Below are positions 24,162 to 51,328 of a DNA stretch of 59,200 nucleotides, one piece after another. Numbering within the stretch: position 1 is the first letter of the stretch; the number at the start of each line of letters is the position of its first letter. Location of the stretch: assembly GCA_034678605.1 (NCBI GenBank), contig JAXDBQ010000020.1:1-59200 (forward strand). Direction: 5' to 3'. The notes under the pieces were generated by a model, which saw nothing but the letters and a program-made list of their open reading frames with translations, ran no database searches and was not told where the DNA came from. Both the position numbers and the translations under genes were made by a program. Origin of the DNA: Patescibacteria group bacterium. GTDB taxonomy: Bacteria; Patescibacteriota; Minisyncoccia; Minisyncoccales; UBA5738.

Positions 24162-24191
24162 TTATTTGCCCTCTATGGCCACGATGTCGTC
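24162..24191 (-). pseudogene. Orphan duplicate of the transglycosylase gene 3' end (DDIVAIEGK*)
   Basis: 24/30 nt identical to 25150-25179 (DDIAAIEGR*). Confidence 0.7.
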
Positions 24192-24203
24192 TTTCCTTAA
24201 AAT

Positions 24204-24809
24204 TTAATTAGCAATATCGGGCAAATCTCTTAACTTTTTGCCTTTGTATTTGAAATAATCCGCCCCCGCATAAGCTCCGCTCGGATTCAATCCACCTCGC
24301 TGTTCATAAAGCTTGTATGTAAGCGGCGCCAATTTCCAAATTTGACCTTCATATTCCACTTCACGCTCACCAATAACTTTTACAGTTATTTTTTCATCAT
24401 CTTTAAAAAGAACCACATCGCCATTTTTCAATCCCTTTTTATAAAAACTAAACAACTCACCTCGCTTTCTAATTTTTGACACCTTATCAAATTCTTTTTC
24501 TTTATTTAGATTTTCCGGATAAATAACCTTACCCTCAAACGACAAAAGTAACTGTTTAACCAACCCATAGTCCAGCGCGAATAACTCGCTATCGCCCACT
24601 TGGTGTTTGTTAAAAATTTCTTTCAAAAGATTTTCCTTGTCTTCGTAATCTTCAATTTCAATCGCGAAGAATTTTCTTAACCCGGCCACATTATAGTAGC
24701 CGTTCGCTTCCAAATTTCGCATTCGTTCCTGGTAATTGTTTGTACCGGTTTTTCCTATTTTTATCAAACCCGAAACAGTAGTTGTCATTACATAAATAAC
24801 TCCTTTCAT
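24204..24809 (-). CDS. GIY-YIG (T5orf172-like) nuclease with C-terminal RAMA/DUF4357-like domain
   Basis: GVIYVM...LIKIGKT...RMRNL and a conserved E (EDKE). C-terminal WKLAPLT...GAYAGADYFKYKGKKL resembles RAMA. Confidence 0.75.
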   Translation of the reverse strand: MKGVIYVMTTTVSGLIKIGKTGTNNYQERMRNLEANGYYNVAGLRKFFAIEIEDYEDKENLLKEIFNKHQVGDSELFALDYGLVKQLLLSFEGKVIYPENLNKEKEFDKVSKIRKRGELFSFYKKGLKNGDVVLFKDDEKITVKVIGEREVEYEGQIWKLAPLTYKLYEQRGGLNPSGAYAGADYFKYKGKKLRDLPDIAN

Positions 24810-25149
24810 ATTTGTTTTAAATAATTGAATAAAATCTAATTCGAATTAATTTTAATTTTCAGCAGACTTTGGTGGTTTTGCGCCGCTCCATCGTTTCAAA
24901 ATTAACGTCGATTTGCTTTCTTTGATTTGAAAAATGGTTTTCCGATTTTAACAATTATTATTGACAATAAAATATATTTTGATAAAATTGATCTATTAAG
25001 ACGAAAAAGTCCCTGCGGTCTTCTGGCCAATGGTCCTTTTTTTATTTTAGCTCGATCAAATTCTTAACATTCAATTCAAATCGTATTTTACTATTTTTTA
25101 ATCTCTGTTTTTGTGCTAATGGCGCATCCGTCCTTTGGCGAACTGCTTT

Positions 25150-26613
25150 CTATCTCCCCTCTATCGCCGCGATATCGTCGGCATAGCCCTGGGCGATCTT
25201 GACCACATTGTCGCCGTAGAAGCGGTATTTGGTGTTCACGGTGCCGGCAAAATAGATCATGGCCGCCTTCCATTCGCCGGCGGTGGTTTGCGAGGTGGCG
25301 CCATAATCGGAAACATAAAGCGCCGTGGCCATAAACGCGTCATTGATATTCCAAGGATTGCCCGGCCGGCCCAAAATTGCTTGCAAGCGGCCGGCATAAA
25401 GTTTCCATGTGGACGGAATGAATTGCCCCGGCCCCATAGCGCCGCCATAGCCAAAGCTCATCGGGCAGGACACCCGCGTTTGGTGCGGATCTTTGCCTAG
25501 TGCGGCGGTAATCTCCAAGAACGGCCCCACGTCGCGCGTGGGTTTCATCACCCGGGACGTCGCCGCGCCGGTGCGGATATTGATCCCCGCGCCCGTGGTG
25601 TCGTTGGTCATGTAGCATTGCCCCACGTTTTTGCCCAAATTCGATTCCTGGGTCAAGATCGCCAGCAAAAATGCCGGCCGCACGCCCGTAGCCCCGCCCG
25701 CGGTCTTGGCGATTTGATAGGCCTGTTCAAAATTGGGGGCGTCGGAATCGGCCACGCCGGCCAACGAAAACAGCCGCTCTCTGATCTTTTGGATCACTTG
25801 CGCGGTTAATTTTTTGGCTTGGGTGGTTTGCGCCAATTCGGCGTCTTTCACTTTCAATGTCTTGTTATATTCGGCTTTGGCCTGTTCGTGTTCCTGCTTT
25901 TGCAGTTCTTTCATTTTGGTGGTTTTTTCCAAATCGCCCTTTTCATTTTCCAAGCCGATCTTTTGATCTTCCAATGATTGCTTGAGCCCTCTTATCTGGC
26001 GCAATATCTGGCCGGTCTTTTTGTTTAATTTTTTCAAATAAGCGGCGTTATCAAAAAAATTCGACAATTTCTTTTCTCCGGCCAATGTCTCGATCAGCGG
26101 CGTCTGGTCGGCGCGATCGATCGAGCGCAAAATCGCCGCCAAATATTGCTGTTCCTGGGCGATCTTGCTCGCGGTGGTTTCCACCGAGTCCTCGGTGTCG
26201 GAAATTTGCAATTTCAAATCGCCGATCATGGCATTGCTCTGTTTGATCTGCACCGACAACGAATCGGTTTTTTTCTTCAACGCCGCGATTTGATTTTGCA
26301 AAGATTTTTTTTCGGTCGAGGTCTTGGCGATATCGCTGTCATACGTCTTTAACAACGCCTCGTATTTGTCCAAAAGCGCCTGACAAGTCTCCTTGGTGAC
26401 GCACTCGCCGGTTTCGCCGTTTCCGTTGGCATCTTGCGCCAAAACCAAGCCGTCGCTTCCGGCTGCCAACGCCAAACCCAAAAATAAACTGCCGCATACC
26501 CAAGACATCGCGGCATTCCTGCGGAAAAGCTTGTTTCCCCGCCGCTCATCCCCGCGGCAAGCCGACGGGGTATCGCGACGGTTAAACAAAACAAAAATAA
26601 TTTTGATTTTCAT
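25150..26613 (-). CDS. Secreted coiled-coil (CwlO-like) plus lytic transglycosylase (SLT_2-like) peptidoglycan hydrolase
   Basis: Signal/TM segment, long heptad region, LLAILTQESNLG (catalytic Glu), GGAMGPGQFIPSTW, YAG...Y. Start uncertain (26613 or 26508). Confidence 0.85.
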   Translation of the reverse strand: MKIKIIFVLFNRRDTPSACRGDERRGNKLFRRNAAMSWVCGSLFLGLALAAGSDGLVLAQDANGNGETGECVTKETCQALLDKYEALLKTYDSDIAKTSTEKKSLQNQIAALKKKTDSLSVQIKQSNAMIGDLKLQISDTEDSVETTASKIAQEQQYLAAILRSIDRADQTPLIETLAGEKKLSNFFDNAAYLKKLNKKTGQILRQIRGLKQSLEDQKIGLENEKGDLEKTTKMKELQKQEHEQAKAEYNKTLKVKDAELAQTTQAKKLTAQVIQKIRERLFSLAGVADSDAPNFEQAYQIAKTAGGATGVRPAFLLAILTQESNLGKNVGQCYMTNDTTGAGINIRTGAATSRVMKPTRDVGPFLEITAALGKDPHQTRVSCPMSFGYGGAMGPGQFIPSTWKLYAGRLQAILGRPGNPWNINDAFMATALYVSDYGATSQTTAGEWKAAMIYFAGTVNTKYRFYGDNVVKIAQGYADDIAAIEGR

Positions 26614-26627
26614 AATTCCATTATACA

Positions 26628-26663
26628 AAACGCCCGCGGTTTGGCAACCGCGGGCGTTTTTGG
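26628..26663 (-). terminator. Intrinsic terminator after rplY
   Basis: AAAACGCCCGCGGTT-TGGC-AACCGCGGGCGTTTT. Confidence 0.8.
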
Positions 26664-26686
26664 AAAGACAAAACAAAAACAGAAAT

Positions 26687-29189: not shown

Positions 29190-29240
29190 TTATTTAATCG
29201 CCGCCAGCTGTTTTTGCAGTTCAAAAGTGAGCTGGATCAA
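29190..29240 (-). pseudogene. Orphan surface-protein C-terminal tail A (LIQLTFELQKQLAAIK*)
   Basis: Shares GAACTGCAAAAACAGCTGGCGGC (23 nt) with the end of 30705-33125; overlaps the AbiEii stop codon. Confidence 0.85.
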
Positions 29241-30013
29241 AATTGGAATGATTCGATATACGCTCTAAACATCGTGATTTTCTTGGCGTCCGCGCCGTTA
29301 ATAATAAACGGCGCCGCGTCTTTGGCCAATTCGTTAAAATTTAAATTTTTGGTTTTTGAAAGCAAGGTGTCTTTCAATTGTTTGCCGTTTTCAATCCCCA
29401 ATTTGGCGGATAAATATTGGTAGTTTGGCGGCGTGAGCGGTAAAAGGAAAACGATATCAAAAAAATCCCGCCCTTTGGCTCGTTTCCGGTTCAGCGCCGC
29501 GTAAATTTTTTGCGCCAGCGACAAGTCAATCGGCGCGACATTTACTTGGGTAAAAACATCAAATTTGTTAATGATCTTTAAGTCCTTTTTATAATCAAAA
29601 GCGTGCGGAACCGTGTCAACCTGGATCATAATTTTTTCCTCGCGCAAATCCGATAAATTATTATCAAATAAAATTTCGGGCATTTTGATGTAAGAACGAT
29701 ACGCTCCTTTGAAAACATTTTTGATTTCCACTTTGCAACCCTGGGCCTCCAACCCTCGCTTTATGCAATCCGCCAGCAAGGAAAAATCTTTTTCGTTGAT
29801 GCCGAAATCATCAAAATCCAAATCTTCGGAAAACCGGCTGTTGCCGTAAATCAGGCGCAAGGCCGTGCCGCCCAAAAACGCAAGCTTTTTGCCTTGCGGC
29901 GAATCAAAAACGATCTCCAATATTTTACATTGCAGATATTCCCTCAAAATGTTACGCTTGAAAACTCTTTCCGGCGGGGAATAATATTTTTCGATGTTAG
30001 ACAAACCAAGCAT
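29237..30013 (-). CDS. AbiEii-like nucleotidyltransferase toxin (type IV TA)
   Basis: LAFLGGTALRLIYGNSRFSEDLDF, KGRDFFDI. Confidence 0.92.
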   Translation of the reverse strand: MLGLSNIEKYYSPPERVFKRNILREYLQCKILEIVFDSPQGKKLAFLGGTALRLIYGNSRFSEDLDFDDFGINEKDFSLLADCIKRGLEAQGCKVEIKNVFKGAYRSYIKMPEILFDNNLSDLREEKIMIQVDTVPHAFDYKKDLKIINKFDVFTQVNVAPIDLSLAQKIYAALNRKRAKGRDFFDIVFLLPLTPPNYQYLSAKLGIENGKQLKDTLLSKTKNLNFNELAKDAAPFIINGADAKKITMFRAYIESFQF

Positions 30014-30620
30014 TGGTGTATTTCATTAAATTGCCGACCCGCTTGTTCAAAGATTTATTTTTGAAAGCCGCCAAAAATTTTTCCAATTTTTTTGTATCGG
30101 CTTTTTCTTTAAATCCAAGCGCGTTAAACCGCATACCGTCAAAATCAACGGCGTCTTTTATACCGGGATTTAAATAAAGATAATCAAGCGCCGCCTTTTC
30201 CATTTGCGCGATGGCATAATTTTGGCCGCGACACTCGCCCAAACCATAACCGAACATCAATTCCGGCTTGATATGCTTATAGATAAAATTTCCCACCGGC
30301 GTTTGAAAATTAGCGGTTTTGCGCGAAGTAACGCAAGTAATTCCATAAACCGCTTCGGGAATTAGATTATGCCAAGACAACGACATTTCCAGGGAAACAT
30401 ATGATGGCGCATAGATTTTATTGGCAATCAAAAACAAAGTTTTTTCATCAATCTGCAAATCGGAAAAAACATAATACCCTTGCCGTATTTTTTTGATATA
30501 TCCTTTTTTTTGCCATTCGCTCAATCTTTGATTGTGAAAAGACGGATCGATTTTTTCAATACCATTGATTGAAAAAACAATAAAATCCTTTAATTCGGTT
30601 TTAAGGTCAATATATTGCAT
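29997..30620 (-). CDS. AbiEi-like antitoxin / wHTH transcriptional regulator
   Basis: IKKIRQGYY, IYAPSYVSLEMSLSWHNLIPE, EKAALDYLY; overlaps the toxin start. Confidence 0.88.
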   Translation of the reverse strand: MQYIDLKTELKDFIVFSINGIEKIDPSFHNQRLSEWQKKGYIKKIRQGYYVFSDLQIDEKTLFLIANKIYAPSYVSLEMSLSWHNLIPEAVYGITCVTSRKTANFQTPVGNFIYKHIKPELMFGYGLGECRGQNYAIAQMEKAALDYLYLNPGIKDAVDFDGMRFNALGFKEKADTKKLEKFLAAFKNKSLNKRVGNLMKYTNAWFV

Positions 30621-30704: not shown

Positions 30705-33125
30705 TTAATTGATTTTTTGCATTGCCGCCAGCTGTTTTTGCAGTTCGGTAATTAGCTGGATAATTAATTGGATAAGCAGTTTTTTAATTTCGGCAATCTT
30801 AGCCAAAATCTCGGCCCGGGTGAGTTTATGCGGCTGTGGTTCGATCGTACCGCCACCCCCTCCTCCACCGCCCCCGCCAGAAGACACACAGGCATTGTCG
30901 CGACAGGTCTTGTTTTCCGCGGCGCAATTTTGCGCCAAGCTTTCTTTGGCGTTGCAGGAATTGTACCAATACAAATTGTTGCTGTCGCATTTCTTGGACG
31001 CATGAGATGTACAACTTGATGTACATTGGCCGGCAGAGCAAGTTTTGCCGCCGGCGCAACTGCCGCAATTAATCGTGGCACCGCAACCATCGCTCCAGTC
31101 CCCGCAATGGTAATTGCCCAAGGTAGCGCAGGTTTTGGCCGCGCAAACCGGGTTATTGACGCAACTTCCATTCTGGCAAGTTTGGTTTGCGCCGCATTTG
31201 GAATTGTCATCCTGCCAACCGGTGCCGTCATCAAGGCAAACCTTACACCCGGAAACTTGGTTAGGCGCGCAGATAATTTTTTGCAATTGCGAAGCCAATT
31301 GGATCTCAGCATTAGCTTTTCCGCCGCCGGAACTGATAAATTTAGAAAGACCGACAAGGCAATGTCCTTTCTCCAATACAATATTAGGAAAAGATTTGTT
31401 GATCGGAACTTGGACGGCGGTCTGCCCATGTCCTTGGAATTGCGCGGAATAAATTTTAACGGCATCGGAAGGTATCAACGCGTAATAATTCTTAACAACC
31501 GCATCTTCTCCTTGCCCGCCTTGATAGCCATTTTGGAATGCGGAACAATTTTTGAATATGTATCCATCGGCAAACGCGGTCCAATCGCTTTCAATGTCAG
31601 TATAGGCGGCAATGCTTATATTACCGTTCATCCCAAATAAACGGACACTATTTTGGGTTTGACTTGGGCCAACATACATTACCGACTGATCATTCCTGCT
31701 AGCCAAAGGAAAAATATACTCATAACCAAAACCTTCGATAAACGGCGAATTAGCCGCATCATTAATCAGATTGCTTTCATATATTAGCGAAACCCGGCTT
31801 TCCAAAATGGCTTCTGATGAACCAAATCCGCCATCTAAAAGAAGATAAATACATTGACTCTTGGTGTCGAACGGAATTTTTTTGTCAAAACGAAAATCAA
31901 CCGGCGCGCTGACGGTTCCTGCGACAAATGTTTTTAGAATATAATTCGCTAAATTTTTCATTTGAGGATATGCGGCGGCAAGGGACGGCCAGTCAGGATA
32001 AATTTTATTTTGAGGGCAAGGCCCGGGAATAATACCGATACTATTAAGCGACATATCAAGCTGCGGCTTGTTCTTCGCGGTAAAAAACAGCGACCCGGAA
32101 AAACCCAAAATATTGATATTTTTTTCATTTGCCGGAAAAGGAAAAAAATACATTCTCTTTTCGTAATGAGACTTATCCGCAATCGCAACAGCGCTAATGC
32201 TTAATCTTTTTTCCGTAATATTGGCGGAAACACATTTGCCTTTTTCGCAAACTTGGCCGGAGGTGCAATTGATAACAGCCGACAATTCAAAACATCCATC
32301 CCCATCGTTGTCACTACAATTTTGATAACTCTTATCATCAAAACATTGGGAGACTTGGGAAGCGCATTCGCTTTGGCAACCGGGGTAGCGATATTCCATT
32401 TTTTTTGACCCAATCAGTATTTTTCCTCCAAAAGGAAAATTGCCGGCATAAGCGTAAACAGTATGGGCAGCGCCATCGTTAAATTGATCGGGTAACTCCC
32501 AATTAAACCCATGCCAAGCATGCCCGCCACAAACATTTCCCACGCCGGGATCTGTTCGTAGGCTATTCGCAACCACGCTCCCCATTGATCTTTGGTTCTC
32601 AATCGGACCGTCGTAAAAATATATAGTCAAAGGTTTTGAATAATCGTCGGCATCGCAGGCCCAGCCAAAGGCAAAATAATTATTAATGCTATCGAAATAA
32701 CCAATTGGAGATTGGCTGCCGGCACATTGCATTGTTTTTTGGCCATTACTTAACAACGGATTCGATCCTGCGGGCGTATTGATCGCGTAAGCGTAGATAT
32801 TGTGGCTTTGGCCGTCTTTTAAAAAATCCGGGGTAGGCATGGCAAACCCGTGCGCCGGTTTGCCGCCGCACAAATCACCTACCGCAGTTTCGCGGGCGAT
32901 GTTGGCAACCGCTGAACCGGCCCATCTGCCAACACCAGCCTCGCCGTCGTAATAAAAATGCACTTCCAGCGATTTTGAATAATCGTCGGCGTCGCATGTC
33001 CAGCCGTAGATAGAATCGCAGCCGGCATAATCAAGATAACCGACCGGCACTTCATTGGCAGAAGAAACTCCCGGCAACGCCAACACGCAAGCAAATAATG
33101 ATAACAAAATAATTGACTTTTTCAT
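30705..33125 (-). CDS. Secreted modular Cys-rich surface protein 1 (806 aa)
   Basis: Signal peptide, two GYxDx...GWxCDADD Ig-like repeats, AT-rich central domain, Cys-rich repeats, poly-Gly, C-terminal TRAEILAKIAEIKKLLIQLIIQLITELQKQLAAM helix. Confidence 0.9.
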   Translation of the reverse strand: MKKSIILLSLFACVLALPGVSSANEVPVGYLDYAGCDSIYGWTCDADDYSKSLEVHFYYDGEAGVGRWAGSAVANIARETAVGDLCGGKPAHGFAMPTPDFLKDGQSHNIYAYAINTPAGSNPLLSNGQKTMQCAGSQSPIGYFDSINNYFAFGWACDADDYSKPLTIYFYDGPIENQRSMGSVVANSLRTDPGVGNVCGGHAWHGFNWELPDQFNDGAAHTVYAYAGNFPFGGKILIGSKKMEYRYPGCQSECASQVSQCFDDKSYQNCSDNDGDGCFELSAVINCTSGQVCEKGKCVSANITEKRLSISAVAIADKSHYEKRMYFFPFPANEKNINILGFSGSLFFTAKNKPQLDMSLNSIGIIPGPCPQNKIYPDWPSLAAAYPQMKNLANYILKTFVAGTVSAPVDFRFDKKIPFDTKSQCIYLLLDGGFGSSEAILESRVSLIYESNLINDAANSPFIEGFGYEYIFPLASRNDQSVMYVGPSQTQNSVRLFGMNGNISIAAYTDIESDWTAFADGYIFKNCSAFQNGYQGGQGEDAVVKNYYALIPSDAVKIYSAQFQGHGQTAVQVPINKSFPNIVLEKGHCLVGLSKFISSGGGKANAEIQLASQLQKIICAPNQVSGCKVCLDDGTGWQDDNSKCGANQTCQNGSCVNNPVCAAKTCATLGNYHCGDWSDGCGATINCGSCAGGKTCSAGQCTSSCTSHASKKCDSNNLYWYNSCNAKESLAQNCAAENKTCRDNACVSSGGGGGGGGGGTIEPQPHKLTRAEILAKIAEIKKLLIQLIIQLITELQKQLAAMQKIN

Positions 33126-37395: not shown

Positions 37396-37418
37396 GGCGG
37401 TCAAAAAATCGGCAACCG

Positions 37419-38078: not shown

Positions 38079-38263
38079 AACAACTTTGCGAGAAACTTTT
38101 TCTTTTTCGGATCAAGGTAAAGCTTGCGCCAGTATTTCTTTAAATCACGGGAATTTATTTTTTTTCCGTCCAAACCGAAATTAACCATCTGCTCCAAACG
38201 CCAAATGGCATATTTTTCTTTGTCTTTTTTTAATTCTGCCGTATCAACCGACCAATTTTTCAT
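38060..38263 (-). CDS. Small partner/antitoxin of the adjacent nucleotidyltransferase (DUF6922-like)
   Basis: 67 aa, NWSVD...WRLEQMVNFG...LDPKKKKFL; overlaps the toxin start; TGgTACAAT promoter-like sequence upstream. Confidence 0.75.
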   Translation of the reverse strand: MKNWSVDTAELKKDKEKYAIWRLEQMVNFGLDGKKINSRDLKKYWRKLYLDPKKKKFLAKLLWPKRY

Positions 38264-40533: not shown

Positions 40534-40550
40534 AAATTTTCCGATACGAA

Positions 40551-41035: not shown

Positions 41036-41083
41036 TTAATTGGTTTTGGGCATTGCCGCCAGCTGCTTTTGCAGTTCGGCGAT
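41036..41083 (-). pseudogene. Orphan surface-protein C-terminal tail C (IAELQKQLAAMPKTN*)
   Basis: Matches the ends of proteins 1 and 2; starts 9 nt after the pfkB stop. Confidence 0.88.
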
Positions 41084-41092
41084 TCAACGATT

Positions 41093-42364: not shown

Positions 42365-42454
42365 CGCTTTTTTTTATTCATTCCTCATAATACTTCGGGG
42401 CTATACCTGATGTAGTTTATTATAAAATTGTTTTCAATCTTTTTTTAGTAATTT

Positions 42455-42583
42455 TTATTTCCGCAGACCGCCGAGCTTGATGATGGTTTTCATAACGCTG
42501 TCGGGGTTAAGCGACATGGTTTCGATGCCTTCGCGCATGATGAATTCGGCAAATTCGGGATAATCGCTGGGCGCTTGGCCGCA
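42455..42583 (-). pseudogene. Orphan duplicate of the last 42 codons plus stop of ppsA
   Basis: 120/129 nt identical to 43460-43588; 8 of 9 differences are synonymous. Confidence 0.95.
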
Positions 42584-42590
42584 AGTTCCC

Positions 42591-42660
42591 TTGACATTAT
42601 TCTATTGCTTGCTATTATTGATTTAGTGACTTCACCCCGAATTAATCTTCGGGGCTTTTG
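42591..42660 (+). promoter_or_regulatory. Antisense promoter plus short hairpin/U-tract facing the NYN gene
   Basis: TTGACA (42591), 16 nt, TATTAT (42613), then CCCCGA-N8-TCGGGG-CTTTTG. Confidence 0.55.
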
Positions 42661-43218
42661 TTATTTGCTTTCCAATTTCAAATATTCGATCTCGCTTCTG
42701 ATGTCTTCAAAAAAGATATGATGCGATTTATGGATTTCCCATGCGACATTCCTTTCGAAACAAGCGAAAATCAACCGCTTTCCGTTGAGAATAACATCTT
42801 TTTTCAATCCAATAAAGTCGCTATCGCTGCTCACAAGCAGCACCGCGTCAATTTTATCCAAACTTCTTATCGCGGCGCAAGTAATTTCCACATCAAAATT
42901 GCATTTATATTTGAATTTAGATTTGGCGCTGTCCAAATAAATCTTTTTAAGCAGCTTTTCGATAATTTCAAAACCCGATTTTTCAATTCTGTCTTTGATC
43001 AATACATTTTTATCATAAGCGGCTTTCTCCAGCGGCATTCCCAAATAATACTTTGCGAATTTTACATTAAAATGCTTCTGGCAAAATATTAAGAACTTGC
43101 CCCAATCGATCCGCCAACCCGCGCTTTTCTGCGAATAAAACAAATTCGCCTCGTCAACAAAAATCCCAACACATTTCCCTTTATATTCGTCTAAAATTTT
43201 GTTAGCTTTGAAATTCAT
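42661..43218 (-). CDS. NYN (LabA/DUF88, PIN-like) domain RNase
   Basis: IFVDEANLFY, KCNFDVEI, LVSSDSDF, FFEDI. Confidence 0.9.
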   Translation of the reverse strand: MNFKANKILDEYKGKCVGIFVDEANLFYSQKSAGWRIDWGKFLIFCQKHFNVKFAKYYLGMPLEKAAYDKNVLIKDRIEKSGFEIIEKLLKKIYLDSAKSKFKYKCNFDVEITCAAIRSLDKIDAVLLVSSDSDFIGLKKDVILNGKRLIFACFERNVAWEIHKSHHIFFEDIRSEIEYLKLESK

Positions 43219-43294: not shown

Positions 43295-43441
43295 ATGAGT
43301 TGCGGCGATTGCCCGGATCCGGTAAAATACAAACCATTTACGCGCAAAGATATCAAACCGCTCGCTCTTTATTTTGCAATAATAGTTATAGTGGTACTAC
43401 TTGCGTTATGGTTGGTGACTTTTTTCCAAAGAATTTTATAA
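43295..43441 (+). CDS. 48-aa single-TM peptide (not in the ORF track)
   Basis: MSCGDCPDPVKYKPFTRKDIKPLALYFAIIVIVVLLALWLVTFFQRIL*; extended -10 TGGTATAAT at 43269-43277. Confidence 0.65.
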   Translation: MSCGDCPDPVKYKPFTRKDIKPLALYFAIIVIVVLLALWLVTFFQRIL

Positions 43442-43459
43442 ATCAATAAAATTCTTTTT

Positions 43460-45853
43460 TTATTTCTGCAAGCCGCCCAACTTGATGATGGTTTTCATGA
43501 CGCTGTCGGGGTTCAATGACATGGTTTCGATGCCTTCGCGCATGATGAATTCGGCAAATTCGGGATAATCGCTGGGCGCTTGGCCGCAGATGCCGATGTA
43601 CTTGCCCCGGACCTTGCAGGCCGCGATCGCCTGTTTGACCAAAATTTTCACCGCCTCGTTGTTCTCACTGGCAATATGAGTCAATTGGCCGGCATCGCGA
43701 TCCAAACCAAGCGTTAATTGCGTGAGGTCGTTGGAACCGATCGACATGCCGTCAAAAATATCCAAGAATTGATCGGCCAAGATCACATTTGAGGGAATTT
43801 CGCACATCACCATAATCTTTAACCCATTCTGACCCGATTCGAGGCCGTTTTTTTTCATCACTTCAATCACTTTTTTGCCTTCCTCCACGGTGCGGCAAAA
43901 CGGAATCATCACCCACACATTATCCAGCCCCATCTGTTCTCTCACTTTTTTGATCGCCGCGCATTCCAGCGCGAATGCCGGCGCAAAGCGCGGGTCATAA
44001 TAGCGCGACGCGCCGCGCCAACCGATCATGGGATTTGATTCTTCGGGCTCGTATTCGCTCCCTCCCAGCAACGCGCGGTATTCATTGGTTTTGAAATCCG
44101 AAAACCGCACGATGATGTGCTTGGGATAAAACGCCGCCGCGATCGTGGCAATGCCCTCGGCAAGCTTGTCCACGAAAAATTCTTTTTTATCTTTGTATCC
44201 GAAAGTGATCTGCTCAATTTGCGCTTTCAGTTTTTTGTCTTTCAACTTGCCAAAATTTATCAGCGCCAGCGGATGCACCTTAACTTGATCGGCAAAAATA
44301 AATTCCACCCGCGCCAAACCCACGCCATCATTGGGCAAAAACGAGGCCTTAAACGCCGCTTCGGGCGTGCCCACGTTGAGCATAATCTTTGTCGGCAACT
44401 CCGGAATCATACCTAAATCATATTCCTTTTTTTCATAAGGAATCTTGCCCGCGTAAACCCGGCCTTCCAGCCCTTGGGTGCAATCCGCCGTGGCCATCAC
44501 GCCGTTTTTTAAAACTTTACTGCCATCACGCGTGCCCACAATGCAGGGCGTGCCCAATTCGCGCGACACGATCGCCGCATGGCAGGTTTTGGTGCCCTCA
44601 TCGGTCACGATCGCCGACGCGATGCGCATAATCGGCACCCAATCCGGGTCAGTCATGGTGGTTACTAAAATTTCACCGGCCTTGAACTGATTGATCTGTT
44701 TGACATTGGGAATAATGTGAATTTTCCCCTGGCCAATCTTGTGGCCCACGGCAATGCCGGCAACCAACGGCTTGGCGCTGGTTTTGACTTCGTATTCTTC
44801 GTAAGTATTTTGAGCAACCTTACCGGCATAGATGGTTTCCGGCCGCGCCTGCACAATAAACAATTCGCCGGTTTTGCCATCTTTGGCCCATTCGATATCC
44901 TGCGGCCCATGGTAGTGCTCCTCGATGATCACCCCCCACTTAGCCAATTGTTCGGCTTCTTTATCGGTCAACGAAAACCGTGCCCGGTCTTTGGGCAAAA
45001 CCTTCACTTCCTTCAAACCGACCTTCTTGTCAAAAATGTATTTGATATCCTTGTTGCCCAATGTTTTGGAAATGATCGCAGTTTTACCTGATTTTAAGGA
45101 AGGTTTAAAAACATAGAACTGGTCGGCCACCACATGGCCTTTCACGATCATTTCACCCGCGCCAAAAATCGAATTGATCAAAACCGCGTTGCGAAATCCG
45201 GTTTCCGTGTCCAAAGTGAACATGATGCCCGCCGAGGCCAGATCCGAGCGCACCATTTTCATCACTCCCACCGACAGCGCCACTTTGAGCGTGTCAAAGC
45301 CCTTTTCGACCCGATAAACGATGGCTCGCTCCAAAAACAGCGACGAAATGCATTTTTTCACCGCGTCCAGCAATTCCAAAGGCGTATCGATATTCAAATA
45401 GGTTTCATGCGCCCCGGCAAACGACGCGCCGGCCAAATCCTCGGCCGTGGCCGACGACCGAACCGCCACATTCACATTCTTGGTTTTGTAATAGGCCGAC
45501 AATTCCTTGTAGGCCGCCAAAATTTCTTTTTTGAAATCCGGCGGAAACTCGCCCTTCAAAACCAAATTGCGCGCCAAAGTGCTGGCTTTTTTGAGTTTAG
45601 CTAAATTGGAAGCATCCAAATCTTTGAAGATCGGTTCCAATTTTTTATCAATGCCGTTGTGCCGCAAATAGCGCCAATAGGCCGTGCTGGTGGTAATAAA
45701 CCCGTTGGGGATCGGCACGCCCTTTTCGCCCAATTGCGAAAACATCTCGCCCAGCGATCCGTTTTTTCCCCCGACCAGCTCCACGTCCTTTTTGGTCACT
45801 TCCTTGAACCACGCCACATTCCTCTCGTTTATGTTTTGATTTTCTGTTTCCAT
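43460..45853 (-). CDS. ppsA: Phosphoenolpyruvate synthase (pyruvate, water dikinase)
   Basis: VGGKNGSLGEM, VAVRSSATAEDLAGASFAG, QARPET, TCHAAIVSRELG (phospho-His), GVGLARVEF, SIGSNDLTQL, GICGQAPSD. Start taken at METENQ. Confidence 0.96.
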   Translation of the reverse strand: METENQNINERNVAWFKEVTKKDVELVGGKNGSLGEMFSQLGEKGVPIPNGFITTSTAYWRYLRHNGIDKKLEPIFKDLDASNLAKLKKASTLARNLVLKGEFPPDFKKEILAAYKELSAYYKTKNVNVAVRSSATAEDLAGASFAGAHETYLNIDTPLELLDAVKKCISSLFLERAIVYRVEKGFDTLKVALSVGVMKMVRSDLASAGIMFTLDTETGFRNAVLINSIFGAGEMIVKGHVVADQFYVFKPSLKSGKTAIISKTLGNKDIKYIFDKKVGLKEVKVLPKDRARFSLTDKEAEQLAKWGVIIEEHYHGPQDIEWAKDGKTGELFIVQARPETIYAGKVAQNTYEEYEVKTSAKPLVAGIAVGHKIGQGKIHIIPNVKQINQFKAGEILVTTMTDPDWVPIMRIASAIVTDEGTKTCHAAIVSRELGTPCIVGTRDGSKVLKNGVMATADCTQGLEGRVYAGKIPYEKKEYDLGMIPELPTKIMLNVGTPEAAFKASFLPNDGVGLARVEFIFADQVKVHPLALINFGKLKDKKLKAQIEQITFGYKDKKEFFVDKLAEGIATIAAAFYPKHIIVRFSDFKTNEYRALLGGSEYEPEESNPMIGWRGASRYYDPRFAPAFALECAAIKKVREQMGLDNVWVMIPFCRTVEEGKKVIEVMKKNGLESGQNGLKIMVMCEIPSNVILADQFLDIFDGMSIGSNDLTQLTLGLDRDAGQLTHIASENNEAVKILVKQAIAACKVRGKYIGICGQAPSDYPEFAEFIMREGIETMSLNPDSVMKTIIKLGGLQK

Positions 45854-45977
45854 AATATTGACAATATTATTATTTTTTAACCTAATCAACAATCAAATTT
45901 TTCACCCGGCGGTTACAAAACCAGATAATTGATTTTACCACACCAAAACCCCAAATCAAAATTCCGGCCTTGGTAAA

Positions 45978-46011
45978 ACATTCTCACATTCTTGAGAATG
46001 TGAGAATGTCG
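45978..46011. repeat. Dyad repeat copy 1 (ACATTCTCACATTCT-TG-AGAATGTGAGAATGT)
   Basis: Perfect 15-bp inverted repeat; 45981-46011 is identical to 47947-47977 (31 nt). Confidence 0.9.
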
Positions 46012-46216: not shown

Positions 46217-46744
46217 CTATTTCCAGAGCCGCGGCATGATGTTCCAACAAGCATCAAAGATTTCTTTGGAAACAAGATCTTTGTGATTCTTCATAATGTA
46301 GGGCAAATTGCGGATGGCCGCGCCCGGATAAATACCCACGATTTGGGCGTTTTTATCGGCAATGGTGATGATTTTTTGCTTATCAATATCCACTCCCGCG
46401 TCGCGCAATCCGTAATCGGCCACATCGCCGATGTCTTTATATCCGGAGATCCATCCGCCAAGGCATTCAACGAAATACGCCCCCATGCCGCAATCCGCGC
46501 GGATGCACATTGTTTCGTCTCCCAGCGAATAAACATAAAAATCCGATTCGGGCACCGTATCATATGGCGGCGCCCAACCAATGCGATCATTTGCTTTTTC
46601 CGCCGCCGCCATGCCAATTTTAATCGTTTTGTACTCTTTCACGCCAAAAGAATACTTTTGCAAAAACCAAACGCCAATCGCAACCAAAATTACTGATAAA
46701 ATCACTCCCTCAACAATCAAATTACAAAATTTTGGCAACCGCAT
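46217..46744 (-). CDS. Hypothetical membrane-anchored exported protein
   Basis: N-terminal TM helix; C-terminal ITIADKNAQIVGIYPG resembles a thioredoxin-fold C-terminal strand pair; no CxxC. Confidence 0.7.
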   Translation of the reverse strand: MRLPKFCNLIVEGVILSVILVAIGVWFLQKYSFGVKEYKTIKIGMAAAEKANDRIGWAPPYDTVPESDFYVYSLGDETMCIRADCGMGAYFVECLGGWISGYKDIGDVADYGLRDAGVDIDKQKIITIADKNAQIVGIYPGAAIRNLPYIMKNHKDLVSKEIFDACWNIMPRLWK

Positions 46745-46766
46745 AAATATATTTCCAAAAATAATT

Positions 46767-46880
46767 TTAATCCGCGATCAAATTTTTGATGATTTTTATC
46801 ATGGTTTCCTTTTCCTTGGGATCGCTTTGGGCCGTAAACATCGGCGGTTAGTTCCAAAATGGAACTATCTGGATTTTATT
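46767..46880 (-). pseudogene. Possible degraded C-terminus of a Fic/DOC-type gene
   Basis: Frameshifted pieces DSSILELT / MFTAQSDPKEKETMIKIIKNLIAD* resemble RhuM-Fic/DOC C-termini (recalled pattern, unverified). Confidence 0.35.
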
Positions 46881-47005
46881 AAGATATTGCCTATTTTTGC
46901 GATAACTAATTTTTATTCGCAATGTGCATTTTTTGCACATTGCTTTGGCGGAAGTATGCGCAAAATTTACACAAACTGGTTTTGCGTAAGCCAAACCAAC
47001 TTATC

Positions 47006-47707
47006 CTATTTTAATTCCATTAACTTTTTCATTATTCGCGGCACTTCATTCACGAAATATTTTTTGACTTCCAACCAATCAGCTTTAAAATTTATTTCCG
47101 GGCCAGAATCCACCTCCGCGTCTTCAAAATACTCCATGCTTAGCAAAATATGATGATAGTCGTGCGCAACGCTGGGGTATTGTTTTTTTAATCGCTTGAT
47201 CGTATTTTCCAGCGGCTCCACATTTTTCGCGCACCAATAAAGATCGAAAAAATCACGCTTACGGCCGCGTTGCGAAATGGCGATGATTTTCATTACTGCA
47301 ATGTCCCGCGCGGATAAAATATTGATTACGCCATGCTTAATGAAATCTTCTGCCGGTATAAAAAACGGATAAGCGATAAAACTCACTTTCGCGCCAAACA
47401 ATTCGCCATAAATTGTGTTTTCTTCATCAAGATTTGTTTTCCAATCCGGAATATCATAAAATTTATCCAAAATTTTTTTTGTGTCGAATTTTCGTTCCAC
47501 CGTAAAAAAATCCAAGTCATATGATTGGCGATGGCCAGCCTGCAACGCCAAAGCCGTGCCACCCGCCAAATACCAGCCGTTATCTTTTAACCAATCTTGA
47601 GACGACAAAAATTCAAACGCTTTTTTTGTTTGCGCGGGCATTATGTCAAAATTCAATAATTTTCCAGAAGCAGTTTCCATGCGTTTTTTGTGCGCGGACG
47701 AAGGCAC
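47006..47707 (-). CDS. AbiEii-like nucleotidyltransferase toxin (true start probably 47680 or 47641)
   Basis: WYLAGGTALALQAGHRQSYDLDFF, DIAVMK, RGRKRDFFDLY. Confidence 0.9.
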   Translation of the reverse strand: MPSSAHKKRMETASGKLLNFDIMPAQTKKAFEFLSSQDWLKDNGWYLAGGTALALQAGHRQSYDLDFFTVERKFDTKKILDKFYDIPDWKTNLDEENTIYGELFGAKVSFIAYPFFIPAEDFIKHGVINILSARDIAVMKIIAISQRGRKRDFFDLYWCAKNVEPLENTIKRLKKQYPSVAHDYHHILLSMEYFEDAEVDSGPEINFKADWLEVKKYFVNEVPRIMKKLMELK

Positions 47708-47889
47708 CGCGATTTATCAACGATCTTTTTGATCAGCGCTTTATCGTAATAATCCCACATCCATTTCACTTCCAAATCATTGCCAAAATCCAAAATCCGC
47801 TCGATCACGTATTGGGCGTTTTTTTGGGGATCGATATTTTTGGGATTCACGTCCCAAAACAAGCTTTGCCGGAATTCCATCGTTTCCAT
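47653..47889 (-). CDS. DUF6922-like small partner/antitoxin
   Basis: LFWDVNPKNIDPQKNAQYVIERILDFG...W; overlaps the toxin start. Confidence 0.8.
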   Translation of the reverse strand: METMEFRQSLFWDVNPKNIDPQKNAQYVIERILDFGNDLEVKWMWDYYDKALIKKIVDKSRCLRPRTKNAWKLLLENY

Positions 47890-47946
47890 AACAACATTTT
47901 ACCATATTCAAGCCCTCGATAAAAGGCCGATCTATCAACAAAACCT

Positions 47947-47977
47947 TCTCACATTCTTGAGAATGTGAGAATGTCGA
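47947..47977. repeat. Dyad repeat copy 2
   Basis: Identical to 45981-46011; about 60 nt upstream of the antitoxin start. Confidence 0.9.
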
Positions 47978-48043: not shown

Positions 48044-48085
48044 ATCTTAAATCTTAAATCTTAAATCTTAAATCTTAAATCTTAA
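48044..48085. repeat. Heptamer array (ATCTTAA)x6, reverse complement of the miaB array unit
   Basis: Six perfect copies; contains the acs stop codon. Confidence 0.9.
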
Positions 48086-50001
48086 ATCGGATTCACCGCA
48101 TTCTTGATGCTTTCGACGCTTTCGGGATTGGCCAGGGTGGATAGGTCGCCCAATTCCTCCTTGGTGAACGCTTTGCGCAAAATACGGCGCATTATCTTGC
48201 CCGAACGGGTTTTGGGCAGGTCGCTCACGATAAAAACCTCGTGCGGCGTGGCGATCGGCCCGATGCCGGACCTAATCGCGGCGATTACTTTCTCCTTCAA
48301 TCCGGCGGTATCGGCCGGGTTTTTGGCCACCACGAACGCCACCGGCACTTCGCCCTTGATCTCGTCCACCACGCCCACCACCGCGCATTCGGCCACGGCC
48401 GGTTCATGACAAGCCGCGCTTTCCAACTCACCCGTGGTCAACCGATGGCCGGCCACTTTGATCATGTCATCGGCCCGACCCACCACGCGCAACAAGCCAT
48501 GCTTGTCGCGCACGCCCAAATCACCGGAAAAATAATATTTGTTTTGGTATTGGCTCCAATAAGTATCAACAAATTTTTGCTCATTGCCCCAAACCCCGTG
48601 CAGCAAACTAGGGCAAAACGGCGGCACCAGCACCACGCTGCCTTCCTGGCCGGCTTTGCAAACTTTGCCGGCCTCGTCAACAACTCTTATCCGGATTCCC
48701 GGCAACGGCAAGCCCGTATGCGCCGGTTTGAACGGCCCGATGCCCGGCAAAGACGTCGCAATTATCCCCCCGGTTTCGGTCTGCCACCAGGTATCAAGGA
48801 TGGGGCACCGCTTTTTGCCCACTTCGGCAAAATACCAATTCCAGGCCTTTTCGCTGATCGGCTCGCCCACTGAGCCCAAAACCTCCAGCGTCTTCATCGA
48901 ATAGGGCTTCAAGATCTCCGTGCCGTTCTTCATGAACATCCGGATGGCCGTGGGCGCGGTATAGAACACGGTTACCCCGTATTTGTCGATCACATTGGCC
49001 CAGCGGTCCGGATTGGGATAATCCGGCAAGCCCTCAAACATAATAAACGTCGCGCCATTCAAAAGCGGCCCATAACAAGAATAAGTGTGCCCGGTGACCC
49101 AGCCGATATCAGCCGTGGACCAGAAGATATCATCGTCGGTGAGATCGAATATCCATTTATCGCTGGCATAGGCCGATACCATATAACCGCCGCATGTATG
49201 CAAGGCACCCTTGGGCTTGCCCGTGGATCCGCTGGTGTACAGAATGAACATCGGGTCCTCGGCATCCATGGTTACGGCCGCGCATTCGTCGGATTCGCCG
49301 CGAATTATCTGATCATACCAAATATCGCGCGCTTCGGTCCAGGCAACCTCGTTTCCGGCATGCTTAATGACCACGGTTTTTTGCACCCCGGTATCAATCA
49401 AACCCTCATCGGCCTGTTTTTTCAAATCCACGACTTTGCCCCGCCGGAAATACCCGTCGCAAGTAATCAACACCTTGGCGCCGGCATCCTGCAAACGCAC
49501 TTGCAGCGCCTGGGCGGAAAATGCCGAAAACACCACCGAATGCACCGCGCCGATGCGCGCGCAAGCAAGCATCGAAACTACCACTTCGGGAATCATCGGC
49601 AAGTACACTCCCACCCGATCGCCTTTCTTGACCCCTAATTTTTTGAGCGCGTTGGCGAATTTGTTCACGCGGCGATAAAGATCATAATAAGTGATCATTT
49701 GCGCCGGCTGAGCCGAATCATCGGCCTCCCAAATGATGGCCACCTTGTTTTTGCGTGTGCTTAAATGCCGATCCAAGCAATTCTCGGTGATGTTTAATTT
49801 TCCGCCCGCAAACCATTTGATATGCGGCGGATTATCAACATAGGCCTTGTTCCATTTTTTACGCCAAAGTAATTCCTTGGCCGCCGCCTCCCAAAACTTC
49901 ACCGGATTTTTCTCGGCAACCGTGTAAACGCTTTTCGCCTTCAACCACGCGCGCTTTTTTGCCACCGCGTCCGGCCAATAAAGTTCCCCTTTTTTTATCA
50001 T
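48082..50001 (-). CDS. acs: Acetate--CoA ligase (AMP-forming)
   Basis: GGKLNITENCLDRH, FILYTSGSTGKPKG, WSTADIGWVTGHTY, GSVGEPI, DTWWQTETG, LPKTRSGKIMRR. Confidence 0.96.
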   Translation of the reverse strand: MIKKGELYWPDAVAKKRAWLKAKSVYTVAEKNPVKFWEAAAKELLWRKKWNKAYVDNPPHIKWFAGGKLNITENCLDRHLSTRKNKVAIIWEADDSAQPAQMITYYDLYRRVNKFANALKKLGVKKGDRVGVYLPMIPEVVVSMLACARIGAVHSVVFSAFSAQALQVRLQDAGAKVLITCDGYFRRGKVVDLKKQADEGLIDTGVQKTVVIKHAGNEVAWTEARDIWYDQIIRGESDECAAVTMDAEDPMFILYTSGSTGKPKGALHTCGGYMVSAYASDKWIFDLTDDDIFWSTADIGWVTGHTYSCYGPLLNGATFIMFEGLPDYPNPDRWANVIDKYGVTVFYTAPTAIRMFMKNGTEILKPYSMKTLEVLGSVGEPISEKAWNWYFAEVGKKRCPILDTWWQTETGGIIATSLPGIGPFKPAHTGLPLPGIRIRVVDEAGKVCKAGQEGSVVLVPPFCPSLLHGVWGNEQKFVDTYWSQYQNKYYFSGDLGVRDKHGLLRVVGRADDMIKVAGHRLTTGELESAACHEPAVAECAVVGVVDEIKGEVPVAFVVAKNPADTAGLKEKVIAAIRSGIGPIATPHEVFIVSDLPKTRSGKIMRRILRKAFTKEELGDLSTLANPESVESIKNAVNPI

Positions 50002-50222
50002 AGTTTTTTATTTTTTTAATAATGATTTCCCTCAAAAATTATTCAATTATTCCAAATAAGGCACACATCCCCATTGACCCGGCCGCATTGTGCGCCCCTC
50101 GGAGCAAAAAATCTCGCCTCTTTGATCAATAAAAATAATATAAACCGCGAATATAACAAAAACAACCATTAAATAAATCAATATATTTTTCGTGCTTATT
50201 TTTTTCCATTTTTAAATTATTT

Positions 50223-51227
50223 TTAATTCCCGGATTCCAAATAATTTCGCACCGCGCGGTCAAAATCGGAAACAAATTTTTTGTCCGCGGCGGCTTTGAA
50301 TTTTGAAAACTCGGTATCCGCTTTTATCTGCGCCTCTTCCATGCTCACATTGCCCGCGTTTTTCAAAACCCCTTTGCCCAAAATCTTTAAATACTCATCC
50401 AATTTAACGATCCAATCAGCCATTTTCATCGGATTTTGGCTCTGCGCCTGGATTTCCGCGAAAGAAAGATACGCGTCAACAATGCGATTAAGATTTTGAA
50501 GTTCGTTTTCCTTTAAATAATTTTTAGCGATATAAATGTCGCGTTTGATGAAATTGTCTCCGGGAAAATTCGTCAATCCCATATTTTGCTTTCCGCCATC
50601 CGCTCTAAACGCGATAATTTCGGACGCGGTTTTGCCGGTTACCGCGTAATGCATTTTATTCTGCACGGTTTTAAAAAAAAGATCGGTGATTTCGGCATCA
50701 TTGCGATAGTCAATGCTGGTGGCGTAAATATCGGTTACTTTTTGATATAACATCCGCTCGCTGGAACGAATATCGCGGATTCTTTGCAACAACTCCTCAA
50801 AATACCTTGACCTATGCCCGCCTTGCTTCAACCGCGCGTCGTCGAGCGCAAACCCTTTTATCATGTATTCTTTCAACCGCTCGATCGCCCATTGGCGGAA
50901 TATCAACCCACGCTCGGAATTAACCCGATAGCCCACCGCGATAATCGCATCCAGACTGTAAAATTCGATTTCGCGCCCAACATCTCTGCTACCTTCTCTC
51001 TGAACTATTCGGAATTTCCGAATAGTTGAATTTTGCTCTAATTCTCCTGTTTTAAATATATTTGACAAATGTTCATTAATGGTCGGCACATTAACATCAA
51101 AAAGCTGGGCCATCAATTTTTGCGACAGCCAAATATTTTCATCCTCAAGCCGCACTTCGACGCGCCTGGCGCCATCCGGCGTTTTATATATAATTATTTG
51201 ATTTTTCCCCTCTCTTTCTTCTGCCAT
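50223..51227 (-). CDS. RhuM-family (virulence RhuM) protein
   Basis: IIIYKT, NIWLSQKLMAQLF, INEHLSNIF, YSLDAIIAVGYRVNS, FRQWA, GFALDDARLK, RIRDIRSSER. Confidence 0.92.
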   Translation of the reverse strand: MAEEREGKNQIIIYKTPDGARRVEVRLEDENIWLSQKLMAQLFDVNVPTINEHLSNIFKTGELEQNSTIRKFRIVQREGSRDVGREIEFYSLDAIIAVGYRVNSERGLIFRQWAIERLKEYMIKGFALDDARLKQGGHRSRYFEELLQRIRDIRSSERMLYQKVTDIYATSIDYRNDAEITDLFFKTVQNKMHYAVTGKTASEIIAFRADGGKQNMGLTNFPGDNFIKRDIYIAKNYLKENELQNLNRIVDAYLSFAEIQAQSQNPMKMADWIVKLDEYLKILGKGVLKNAGNVSMEEAQIKADTEFSKFKAAADKKFVSDFDRAVRNYLESGN

Positions 51228-51265
51228 GTATTAATTACAAAATAATTTCAAATAAATATTTTTAA

Positions 51266-51328
51266 TTCAACCACGCTCGTTTTTTTTGCCGCCGCGTCCG
51301 GCCAATAAAGTTCCCCTTTTTTTATCAT
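51266..51328 (-). pseudogene. Orphan duplicate of the first ~20 codons of acs (frameshifted)
   Basis: Matches 49940-50001 with 3 substitutions and one extra A; lies 14 nt after the gapA stop. Confidence 0.93.

Follow-up and report, generated by a model that had tools for sequence, protein, structure and literature searches.

Why should accessory genes that sit between conserved genes be bracketed by an intact gene end and by a second, orphaned copy of that same end? This question is raised by contig JAXDBQ010000020.1 of assembly GCA_034678605.1, assigned to UBA5738 within the Minisyncoccales (Patescibacteria), from a 1.0-Mb genome with a completeness of 99%. The 59,200 nt analyzed here, which are present in metagenomes of several studies covering digesters, sludge, and wastewater, are referred to as the window, and the case region spans positions 24162–51328. 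An initial annotation, made from the letters of the window, had proposed that small cassettes entered by recombination through the gene ends of related donors and left a diverged duplicate behind. We found by comparison with relatives that the two copies of an end are different natural alleles, as that annotation had assumed, that the cassettes are polymorphic in their presence and absence, and that integrases are lacking at the inspected sites. On balance, the duplicates are probably scars of gene capture by the homologous recombination of the cell itself and not footprints of a dedicated mobile element.

Accessory genes between duplicated gene ends

All genes between 22 and 52 kb are carried on the minus strand, and their backbone follows the order GAPDH, acs, ppsA, pfkB, FBPase, a gene for a 142-aa protein, ribosomal protein L25, SLT transglycosylase, and a convergent release-factor gene (prf). 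The gaps are occupied by accessory genes, the families of which were assigned using Pfam and PADLOC: RhuM (PDC-S05), an AbiEii module, NYN, GIY-YIG/T5orf172 (PDC-S57), and an AbiL-like pair, as well as a further block of three large surface-protein genes with two AbiE-type toxin-antitoxin pairs. A comparison with 12 genomes of the same genus via fused-protein searches (ppsA protein 82–90% identical) revealed that the backbone GAPDH-acs-ppsA-pfkB-FBPase-L25-SLT-prf is kept across all of them, and that each gap is empty in some genomes and differently filled in others. In the complete genome G006, the GAPDH-acs, ppsA-pfkB, pfkB-FBPase, and SLT-prf gaps are all empty and the surface-protein array is missing, and in G002 the acs-ppsA gap is empty. 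The SLT-prf gap measures merely ~110–170 nt in G006, G008, and G004. In other relatives, the same gaps hold RelE-type pairs, NYN genes, Cys-rich membrane proteins, or a 13-kb island. Inserts in the window comprise ~0.9–1.9 kb and, as the initial annotation had anticipated, orphan ends were not seen in relatives without the cargo. As a separate observation, the FBPase gene of G006 (L032 17222–17421) is split by an exact 100-nt tandem duplication, which may be real, and would then shift the frame, or may stem from an assembly error.

All five end duplications that had been reported initially were recovered by local alignment and self-BLAST of the window. The 3' end of ppsA (43457–43588) recurs at 42452–42583 (132 nt, 93% identity, E 1.6e-49), and the 5' end of acs (49940–50002) recurs at 51266–51329 (64 nt, 94% identity, E 1.4e-18); the orphan of the latter, which holds a 1-nt insertion and a stop, extends to ~51246 (~83 nt) when it is aligned against relatives. 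Two pairs concern the tails of surface-protein genes (30721–30772 versus 29197–29247, E 5e-5; 38345–38382 versus 37367–37404), and an extra, third orphan tail is found at 41045–41092, fused to the pfkB stop. For the 3' end of SLT (25151–25179 versus 24163–24191), 24 of 29 positions are identical, a score that lies only near the 99th percentile of the null and is not significant alone. Nevertheless, this orphan is in frame, reaches the stop codon, differs by 3 synonymous and 2 conservative changes, and matches the SLT end alleles of relatives. Furthermore, a sixth module, the third AbiE, lies between two copies of a unit that consists of the acs terminator hairpin and the ppsA promoter (45975–46011 versus 47940–47976, 37 nt, 97% identity; ~90 nt for the whole unit). 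For the AbiL-like pair, which is the second cargo between SLT and prf, no duplicate was detected. Stubs are 30–149 nt long and derive from 3' and 5' gene ends alike.

The absence of a nearby integrase, also part of the initial annotation, was confirmed within the range searched. No recombinase domain was detected among the window's open reading frames (ORFs) scanned with Pfam, which were all but a few; the only match to PF00589 (tyrosine recombinase) in the genome is located on contig C7, outside the window; and no integrase was found beside the inspected sites here or in relatives.

In order to determine how far such scars extend through the genome, 1,524 gene ends, called beyond the window with a crude ORF picker, were scanned against their adjacent 4 kb. 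This yielded 40 matches at a score of at least 18, compared to 10 at random places. The majority of these matches, however, represent heptamer hairpins between genes, promoters, tandem paralogues, or ORFs that the crude caller had placed on the wrong strand. After curation, the strong cases were repeats of diversity-generating retroelements (DGRs), tandem paralogues, and true orphan ends, with only the window cases and pilD on contig C8 in the last group. In this seventh scar (C8:7842–9506), the first 23 codons of pilD (prepilin peptidase) and the ribosome-binding region (75 nt) are repeated upstream of an insert that consists of a 449-aa AAA-ATPase gene with its own promoter. Moreover, a Cys-rich membrane-protein gene is flanked by an orphaned 3' end of GAPDH in two relatives (149 nt in G005, 54 nt in G001); therefore, in contrast to what the initial annotation had supposed, the cargo is not restricted to defense or toxin genes.

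Genome-wide, ~250 short direct-repeat pairs lie within 8 kb of each other, mostly as intergenic hairpins and promoters. The DGRs are located at C32:150220–152233 and C1:5462–7502, where two paralogous genes for secreted proteins (556 and 389 aa) each have a repeat of their 3' end ~300 nt downstream, with 12 of 12 differences at adenines of the downstream copy, followed by an Avd-like ORF and a YVDD reverse-transcriptase gene. The pair at C2:6461–7129 (15 of 22 differences at adenines) is probably a DGR as well. As an explanation for the window, a DGR was ruled out, since the differences of the ppsA pair lack any adenine bias. A repeat family of another kind was noted on C19 (L001, 5900–18500), where nearly every gap between ribosomal-protein genes of the S10/spc cluster (secY to tuf) holds a ~100-nt imperfect palindrome built of 7-nt words (AAAGCGT.../...ACGCTTT).

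Allelic origin of the copies at individual sites

The ppsA/NYN site is the most informative with respect to the donor. The pair of ppsA ends opens with 71 identical nt, followed by 9 differences, 8 of which are synonymous. None of the 12 same-genus genomes has a second ppsA end or an NYN gene between ppsA and pfkB, and a scan of genome contigs returned no NYN relatives. A protein search identified more than 70 NYN relatives, including two with 84% and 73% identity that are both located between ppsA and pfkB (L064 and L065). L065 shows the order ppsA, a 113-aa gene, NYN, and pfkB, with the orphan missing. L064 shares the ppsA-NYN-orphan-pfkB structure of the window, with its ppsA and pfkB being 89% and 74% identical to those of the window and a ppsA-NYN spacer of only 94 nt. 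The window, L064, and L065 are colinear across the NYN terminator region. In L065, this region continues into ATGTCAAGTTTTGAT, the start of pfkB; in both the window and L064, the 3' flank of NYN leads into a remnant of an L065-type pfkB start and from there to ppsA(-130), with the two joints within 2–3 nt of each other. Therefore, the insert is a segment of a donor chromosome that extends from ppsA(-130 or further upstream) to about pfkB(+16). The same junction in a species-level relative suggests that the scar is old and inherited: the event appears to predate the split of the window and L064 lineages, or else the structure was handed on whole. An active system, as implied by the initial annotation, is not borne out by such a shared, inherited scar.

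The two ppsA end alleles of the window each match different relatives, and in both the window and L064 the orphan resembles the functional end of its own genome. The orphan in L064 differs at 10 scattered positions, in many cases non-synonymously, as would a decaying copy. The earlier assumption that both copies had evolved as coding sequence before they were juxtaposed is thus one reading among others, since the non-synonymous changes of the L064 orphan and its likeness to its own ppsA point to gene conversion and later allelic replacement. We therefore read the ppsA copies as having been homogenized by gene conversion; in the window, a subsequent allelic replacement would have exchanged the final 61 nt of ppsA and the adjoining spacer with its small peptide gene.

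Small ORFs that encode one transmembrane helix and a Cys-containing tail recur in the cassette spacers (43295–43441 (+), 42125–42364 (+), and ~50055–50185 (-)), and a similar ORF is found right after GAPDH in a relative (L070 1074–1268).

At the acs/RhuM site, the stub can be assigned to an allele. In G008 and G009, the real acs start follows GAPDH after a short spacer, nearly where the stub of the window begins, and these two genomes also have the allele type (WLNSK) that is seen in the last 20 nt of the stub. The functional acs belongs to the G003/G006 type. In G005 and L069, RhuM (86–90% identical) is located directly upstream of acs and the stub is absent, which is a donor-like arrangement. 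In L070–L072, a ~105-nt acs stub lies ahead of RhuM, and the joint differs from that of the window (~83 nt). RhuM has thus joined the acs 5' region at positions that differ by lineage, which argues against a site-specific enzyme. With G005 and G009 standing in for donor and recipient, microhomology at the RhuM joint amounts to at most 2–4 nt. In metagenomic run X1, the dominant strain lacks RhuM (depth ~1 versus ~150 in the flanks); the acs allele reconstructed for this strain differs from the orphan and is not diagnostic. Donor and recipient roles are assigned throughout with present-day relatives as stand-ins; on this basis, the donor-type pfkB start in the NYN flank and the position of RhuM directly upstream of acs in other lineages agree with the proposal that the cargo came from related donors. 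Concerning the third AbiE module, the terminator/promoter unit is present in a single copy at the empty acs-ppsA site of G002.

For the surface-protein island, run X1 provided two joints, one from 37396 to 38399, which represents an empty site with the second toxin-antitoxin pair missing, and one from 37319 to 41045. In the strain without the second pair, the surface gene ends in the orphan-type tail, together with the terminator and promoter downstream of it. This is the single empty-site variant that can be read, and it looks ancestral rather than excised, so that it gives no sign of the precise excision that the repeats had been suggested to allow. Taken together, the strain variants in metagenomes include one without the second toxin-antitoxin pair, one without this pair and the 745-aa surface-protein gene, and one without the third AbiE module. 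In G006 and L064, pfkB directly adjoins FBPase and the gap holds no tail-like target; therefore, the outermost tails (t1 and t6, Table 1) arrived with the island and are not target duplications. None of the 63 fetched loci, among them those with homologues of the AbiE and nucleotidyltransferase cassettes, contains the tail motif.

Further features of the island were examined as well. An integron/attC-like site in the tail was rejected: only three copies have the palindrome AGCTGCAAAAGCAGCT in perfect form, and it simply encodes ELQKQL, and no hairpin is kept across the copies. A short ORF at 40551–40993, between the copy of the promoter of the 745-aa surface-protein gene (41009–41039) and that gene, is interrupted by TAA at 40593–40595; run X1 reads G at 40595, which would turn this stop into CAA and thus indicates a nonsense polymorphism between strains. 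In relatives, AbiEi/AbiEii homologues are flanked by direct repeats of 50–90 nt at L061 2017–2112, 4216–4306, and 5885–5931 (G010:C96) and at L063 3968–4058 and 5267–5357 (G011:C26), where the repeat resembles an operator-bearing promoter common to two neighboring cassettes.

With respect to the question of which copy is the original one, the place and allele of the acs stub, the tail of the strain lacking the toxin-antitoxin pair, the colinearity with G002, and the ppsA alleles matching different relatives indicate that the resident end is the orphan one, still in its native position, and that the functional end came with the cargo.

Table 1. Coordinates of backbone genes, cargo, and duplicated ends in the window.
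Feature	Position	Strand	Basis or remark
AbiL-like pair (AAA_15 AbiLi/PDC-M38A and PDC-M38B), second SLT-prf cargo	22334..24102	-	Pfam/PADLOC
Orphan SLT 3' end, last 9 codons and stop, G005/G002 allele type	24163..24191	-	
GIY-YIG/T5orf172 protein, candidate defense family PDC-S57, cargo	24204..24809	-	Pfam/PADLOC
SLT-domain transglycosylase; functional 3' end 25151–25179	25150..26676	-	Pfam SLT_2
Orphan tail t6, overlaps AbiEii stop codon, just upstream of FBPase	29190..29247	-	
AbiEi/AbiEii type IV toxin-antitoxin pair, cargo	29237..30620	-	Pfam/PADLOC
Surface protein gene (806 aa), in-frame tail t5 at 30714–30772	30705..33125	-	
Surface protein gene (1359 aa), in-frame tail t4 at 33200–33247	33197..37276	-	
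Orphan tail t3, native terminator and promoter downstream	37351..37404	-	Serves as gene end in strain lacking the toxin-antitoxin pair
AbiEii-like nucleotidyltransferase toxin and 67-aa partner, cargo	37419..38263	-	Pfam/PADLOC; homologues of relatives at other loci
Surface protein gene (745 aa), functional tail t2 at 38329–38398	38323..40560	-	
Orphan tail t1, fused to pfkB stop, left edge of surface-protein island	41045..41092	-	
Orphan ppsA 3' end (copy B)	42452..42583	-	Alignment; spanned with both flanks by X15 contig 42295–42609
Donor-type pfkB start remnant (ATGTCAAG...) at joint of NYN flank and orphan	42584..42597	-	Three-way colinearity of window, L064, and L065
NYN-domain protein, cargo	42661..43218	-	Pfam/PADLOC; 73–84% identical homologues at same site
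Small membrane-peptide ORF between ppsA and NYN	43295..43441 (approximate)	+	Read from sequence; absent in L064
ppsA; functional 3' end (copy A) 43457–43588	43460..45892	-	
Second copy of acs terminator hairpin and ppsA promoter unit, now serves ppsA	45925..46011	-	
AbiEii module, small upstream partner, and 175-aa membrane protein, cargo; at this site in most of the genus	46217..47905	-	
Resident copy of acs terminator and ppsA promoter unit, now precedes AbiE module	47890..47976	-	Colinear with G002 empty site
acs; functional 5' end 49940–50002	48082..50001	-	
RhuM-family protein (PDC-S05), cargo	50223..51227	-	Pfam/PADLOC; small membrane-peptide ORF ~50055–50185
Orphan acs 5' end, G008/G009 allele type, frameshifted, 24 nt past GAPDH stop	51246..51329	-	
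GAPDH, backbone gene bounding the region	51343..52365	-	

Besides the cassettes listed, the window encodes a HepT-like ribonuclease toxin (9562–9984), for which the end scan found no duplicated gene end; its gene is flanked by dcd and rplK and presumably preceded by that of an MNT antitoxin. A second NYN-domain gene (57035–57562), the start of which overlaps the stop of a Nuo51-like gene, resembles an operon member and not a cassette.

Recombination route and competing explanations

The arrangement is best read as the outcome of single-crossover or one-anchor recombination, with natural transformation as the probable route of entry. According to this proposal, a piece of ~1 kb from the chromosome of a related strain, which carries a cargo gene and the end of the adjacent conserved gene, would enter a genome without the cargo, where this gene end would be the sole usable homology. 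Integration could then take place either by a Campbell-type single crossover of the circularized fragment or by one homologous anchor combined with one illegitimate joint. The product would be a gene with an imported end, the cargo, and the resident end, orphaned in its native context. In the case of 5' ends, the resident promoter and first codons would stay upstream of the cargo, and the gene would gain an imported promoter and start. Scars formed in this way may be long-lived, partly homogenized by gene conversion, and re-diversified by later allelic replacement. RecA, DprA, and ComEC, which the initial annotation had suggested looking for, are all encoded in the genome. As judged from the repeats themselves, the short and diverged SLT and tail copies seem to fit an illegitimate joint better. 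The closure of a circle fits the joint of pfkB(+16) to ppsA(-130), and an illegitimate joint to the recipient fits it equally.

Several points weigh against this proposal. The crossover route stays ambiguous, as later gene conversion has wiped out the distinction between donor and recipient sequence within the repeats; a Campbell-type and a one-anchor event are not separable because conversion, evident from the concerted evolution in L064, has overwritten the informative positions. The longest identical run comprises 8 bases in the SLT pair and 19–23 bases in the tails, which is too little for a RecA crossover in the present repeats. In the ppsA pair, 71 identical bases are followed by 15% divergence, where a simple Campbell event predicts otherwise and would need conversion or a second replacement. 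Moreover, the proposal gives no account of how a 1-kb fragment would circularize. The read evidence, which consists of short-read contigs from public metagenomes, revealed neither a circle nor an excision product nor a recent event; contigs assembled with k=31 cannot separate a circle plus an empty site from the integrated form across identical cores. Finally, the genome-wide search for recombinases covered the tyrosine family and did not extend to serine recombinases or DDE transposases.

An extension of gene capture that we regard as rather doubtful is that units of stub and cargo act as a passive exchange system in the manner of an integron, with RecA as its sole enzyme. If the functional end recombined with its orphan, the cargo would be released as a circle with one hybrid stub. 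Such a circle could integrate anew wherever a similar end exists, be it in any genome or in any paralogous surface-protein gene, with gene conversion keeping the stub near the functional gene and thus usable as an 'att' site. If true, this would explain the NYN joint shared by two species, the stubs that track the allele of their host, and the tail repeats that bound each unit of the surface island. An actual integron is not apparent: no IntI/attI/attC arrangement was recognized, with the lone tyrosine recombinase located elsewhere and the boundaries being unrelated gene ends, although no attC model was run.

Alternatively, the cargo itself could drive its insertion, with an encoded nuclease or toxin (NYN, GIY-YIG, AbiE, or RhuM) causing a staggered or resected break in the neighboring gene and repair copying the cargo in along with a true long target duplication. 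This scenario corresponds to the selfish-gene model proposed for restriction-modification units; the layout reported by Furuta et al. for restriction-modification genes, along with a discussion of their life cycle, is the same (PMC2853133). Several cargo genes encode nucleases or toxins, the L064 orphan resembles a decayed copy of its own ppsA end, and the first 71 nt of the ppsA pair in the window are identical. However, the cargo is unrelated between sites and includes non-enzymes (the Cys-rich membrane protein of G001/G005 and whole surface-protein genes), the insert holds remnants of donor backbone genes that a self-mobilizing unit would not need, and the acs, SLT, and tail orphans differ from the functional end in allele type. 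We therefore consider this explanation unlikely.

We judge it to be improbable that the cassettes are decayed site-specific islands, which carried a replacement end in attP and later lost their integrase. Replacement gene ends are classic for integrase-borne islands, and the ppsA/NYN joint lies at the same position in two genomes. However, no integrase was found at the ~7 sites here or at the inspected sites of relatives, and the genome has one tyrosine recombinase. Moreover, the inserts comprise just ~1 kb, 5' and 3' ends are both used, the RhuM-acs joint varies in position among lineages, and a common core sequence is not evident.

Local events, i.e., tandem duplication of a gene end by slippage or unequal crossing-over with unrelated DNA later inserted between the copies, would be in line with the abundance of closely spaced direct repeats in this genome (~250 pairs less than 8 kb apart). 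However, two coincident events would be required at each of ~7 sites, relatives with empty sites never show a duplicated end without cargo, and the orphans are of foreign allele types, which renders this scenario very improbable.

The possibility with the least credit, a strain-chimeric assembly that joins two alleles of one locus, arises from the several strains in the sample and from identical cores of 71 nt and 38 nt that collapse in k=31 contigs, but is already refuted for the ppsA copies and the GAPDH-stub-RhuM joint. In low-depth runs of other studies, a zero-difference contig (42295–42609, X15) spans the whole orphan ppsA copy with its unique flanks, contigs 43308–43827 and 43281–43748 span the functional copy from the cassette into the body of ppsA, and an X10 contig (51085–51393) covers GAPDH, the acs stub, and the start of RhuM. 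Furthermore, the ppsA-NYN-orphan structure was assembled independently in L064. This check, which answers the concern of the initial annotation that reads might not span the duplications, covered the joints named here, with the GIY and AbiE1 joints left out.

Relation to known systems and significance

Gene capture as described here does not represent a new class of mobile element; it belongs with 'insertion with long target duplication' (ILTD), which is known for restriction-modification gene units (Nobusato et al. 2000, as cited in PMC2853133; Furuta, Abe & Kobayashi 2010, PMC2853133). Both involve small inserts that lack mobility genes and lie between direct repeats longer than 30 bp, for which a relative with an empty site has the target as a single copy; in ILTD, the repeats often overlap the 3' end of a gene, and it is known mostly from naturally competent bacteria (PMC2853133). 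In the present case, empty sites exist in related genomes (four gaps in G006, acs-ppsA in G002), repeats exceed 30 bp for ppsA (132 nt), acs (~83 nt), the tails (~45 nt), and the terminator/promoter unit (~90 nt), with SLT being borderline at 29–30 nt, and inserts are shorter than 20 kb without integrase or transposase among the window ORFs scanned, transposase families not having been searched genome-wide. The sole departure from the definition is the lack of restriction and modification genes in the insert, which holds GIY-YIG, AbiE pairs, NYN, and RhuM instead. More broadly, the cargo here consists of toxin-antitoxin, candidate defense, membrane, and surface proteins, the repeats are diverged alleles and not near-identical, 5' ends and promoters are duplicated as well, and the donor is traceable to a related chromosome. 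Our findings thus add to ILTD traceable chromosomal donors, scars that outlast species-level divergence and change in concert with their gene, and the capture of promoters by the cargo.

With regard to the recombination event itself, the single crossover of a circle with a partial gene end into lacZ of E. coli yields end duplications of 109–950 bp and is commoner than true one-anchor events (PMC3240628). The layout of gene, insert, and partial second end, formed without a dedicated recombinase, is alike (PMC3240628), and the window likewise has two copies in direct orientation flanking the insert, one of which is continuous with the gene. In contrast, the lacZ substrate was a laboratory plasmid, whereas the substrate here would be a circularized chromosomal fragment with homologies down to ~30–45 nt. 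Homology-facilitated illegitimate recombination, observed in the transformation of Acinetobacter, Streptococcus pneumoniae, and Pseudomonas stutzeri (summarized in PMC3240628), resembles the one-anchor version of the proposal, in which a single anchor in a conserved gene would bring in adjacent foreign DNA and the second joint would be illegitimate, and ComEC, DprA, and RecA are present here; however, it classically deletes recipient DNA, whereas here the recipient piece is retained as a duplicate.

Other systems differ more clearly. From integrase-borne islands, the cassettes are set apart by the lack of an integrase inside the element at the inspected sites and by insertion points that vary between lineages. 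In Rhs/CdiA loci, a new gene end together with a downstream gene displaces the old end, which is kept downstream as an orphan. The array of surface-protein tails has this look of displaced ends, but the conserved tail is short and without toxin/immunity logic, and ppsA, acs, and SLT have no polymorphic C-terminal domain. In Neisseria, minimal mobile elements are alternative cassettes between the same pair of conserved genes that are exchanged without mobility genes; unlike here, this exchange uses both flanks and leaves no duplicated gene ends. The term 'minimal mobile elements' is used in PMC3787668, among other papers.

These results extend ILTD past restriction-modification genes. For annotation, they imply that short orphan ORFs adjoining defense genes should be regarded as recombination debris. 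Furthermore, where a resident promoter ends up driving the cargo, expression is rewired. In the candidate phyla radiation, genomes are tiny and nearly devoid of integrases and transposons; even so, strains vary in defense and surface genes, and the scars point to one route by which such genes arrive: as kilobase pieces of related chromosomes that use a single conserved gene end as homology and are concentrated at a few hot spots in an operon-like central-carbon cluster. Lasting across species-level divergence, the scars thus provide a readable record of past donor-recipient pairs.

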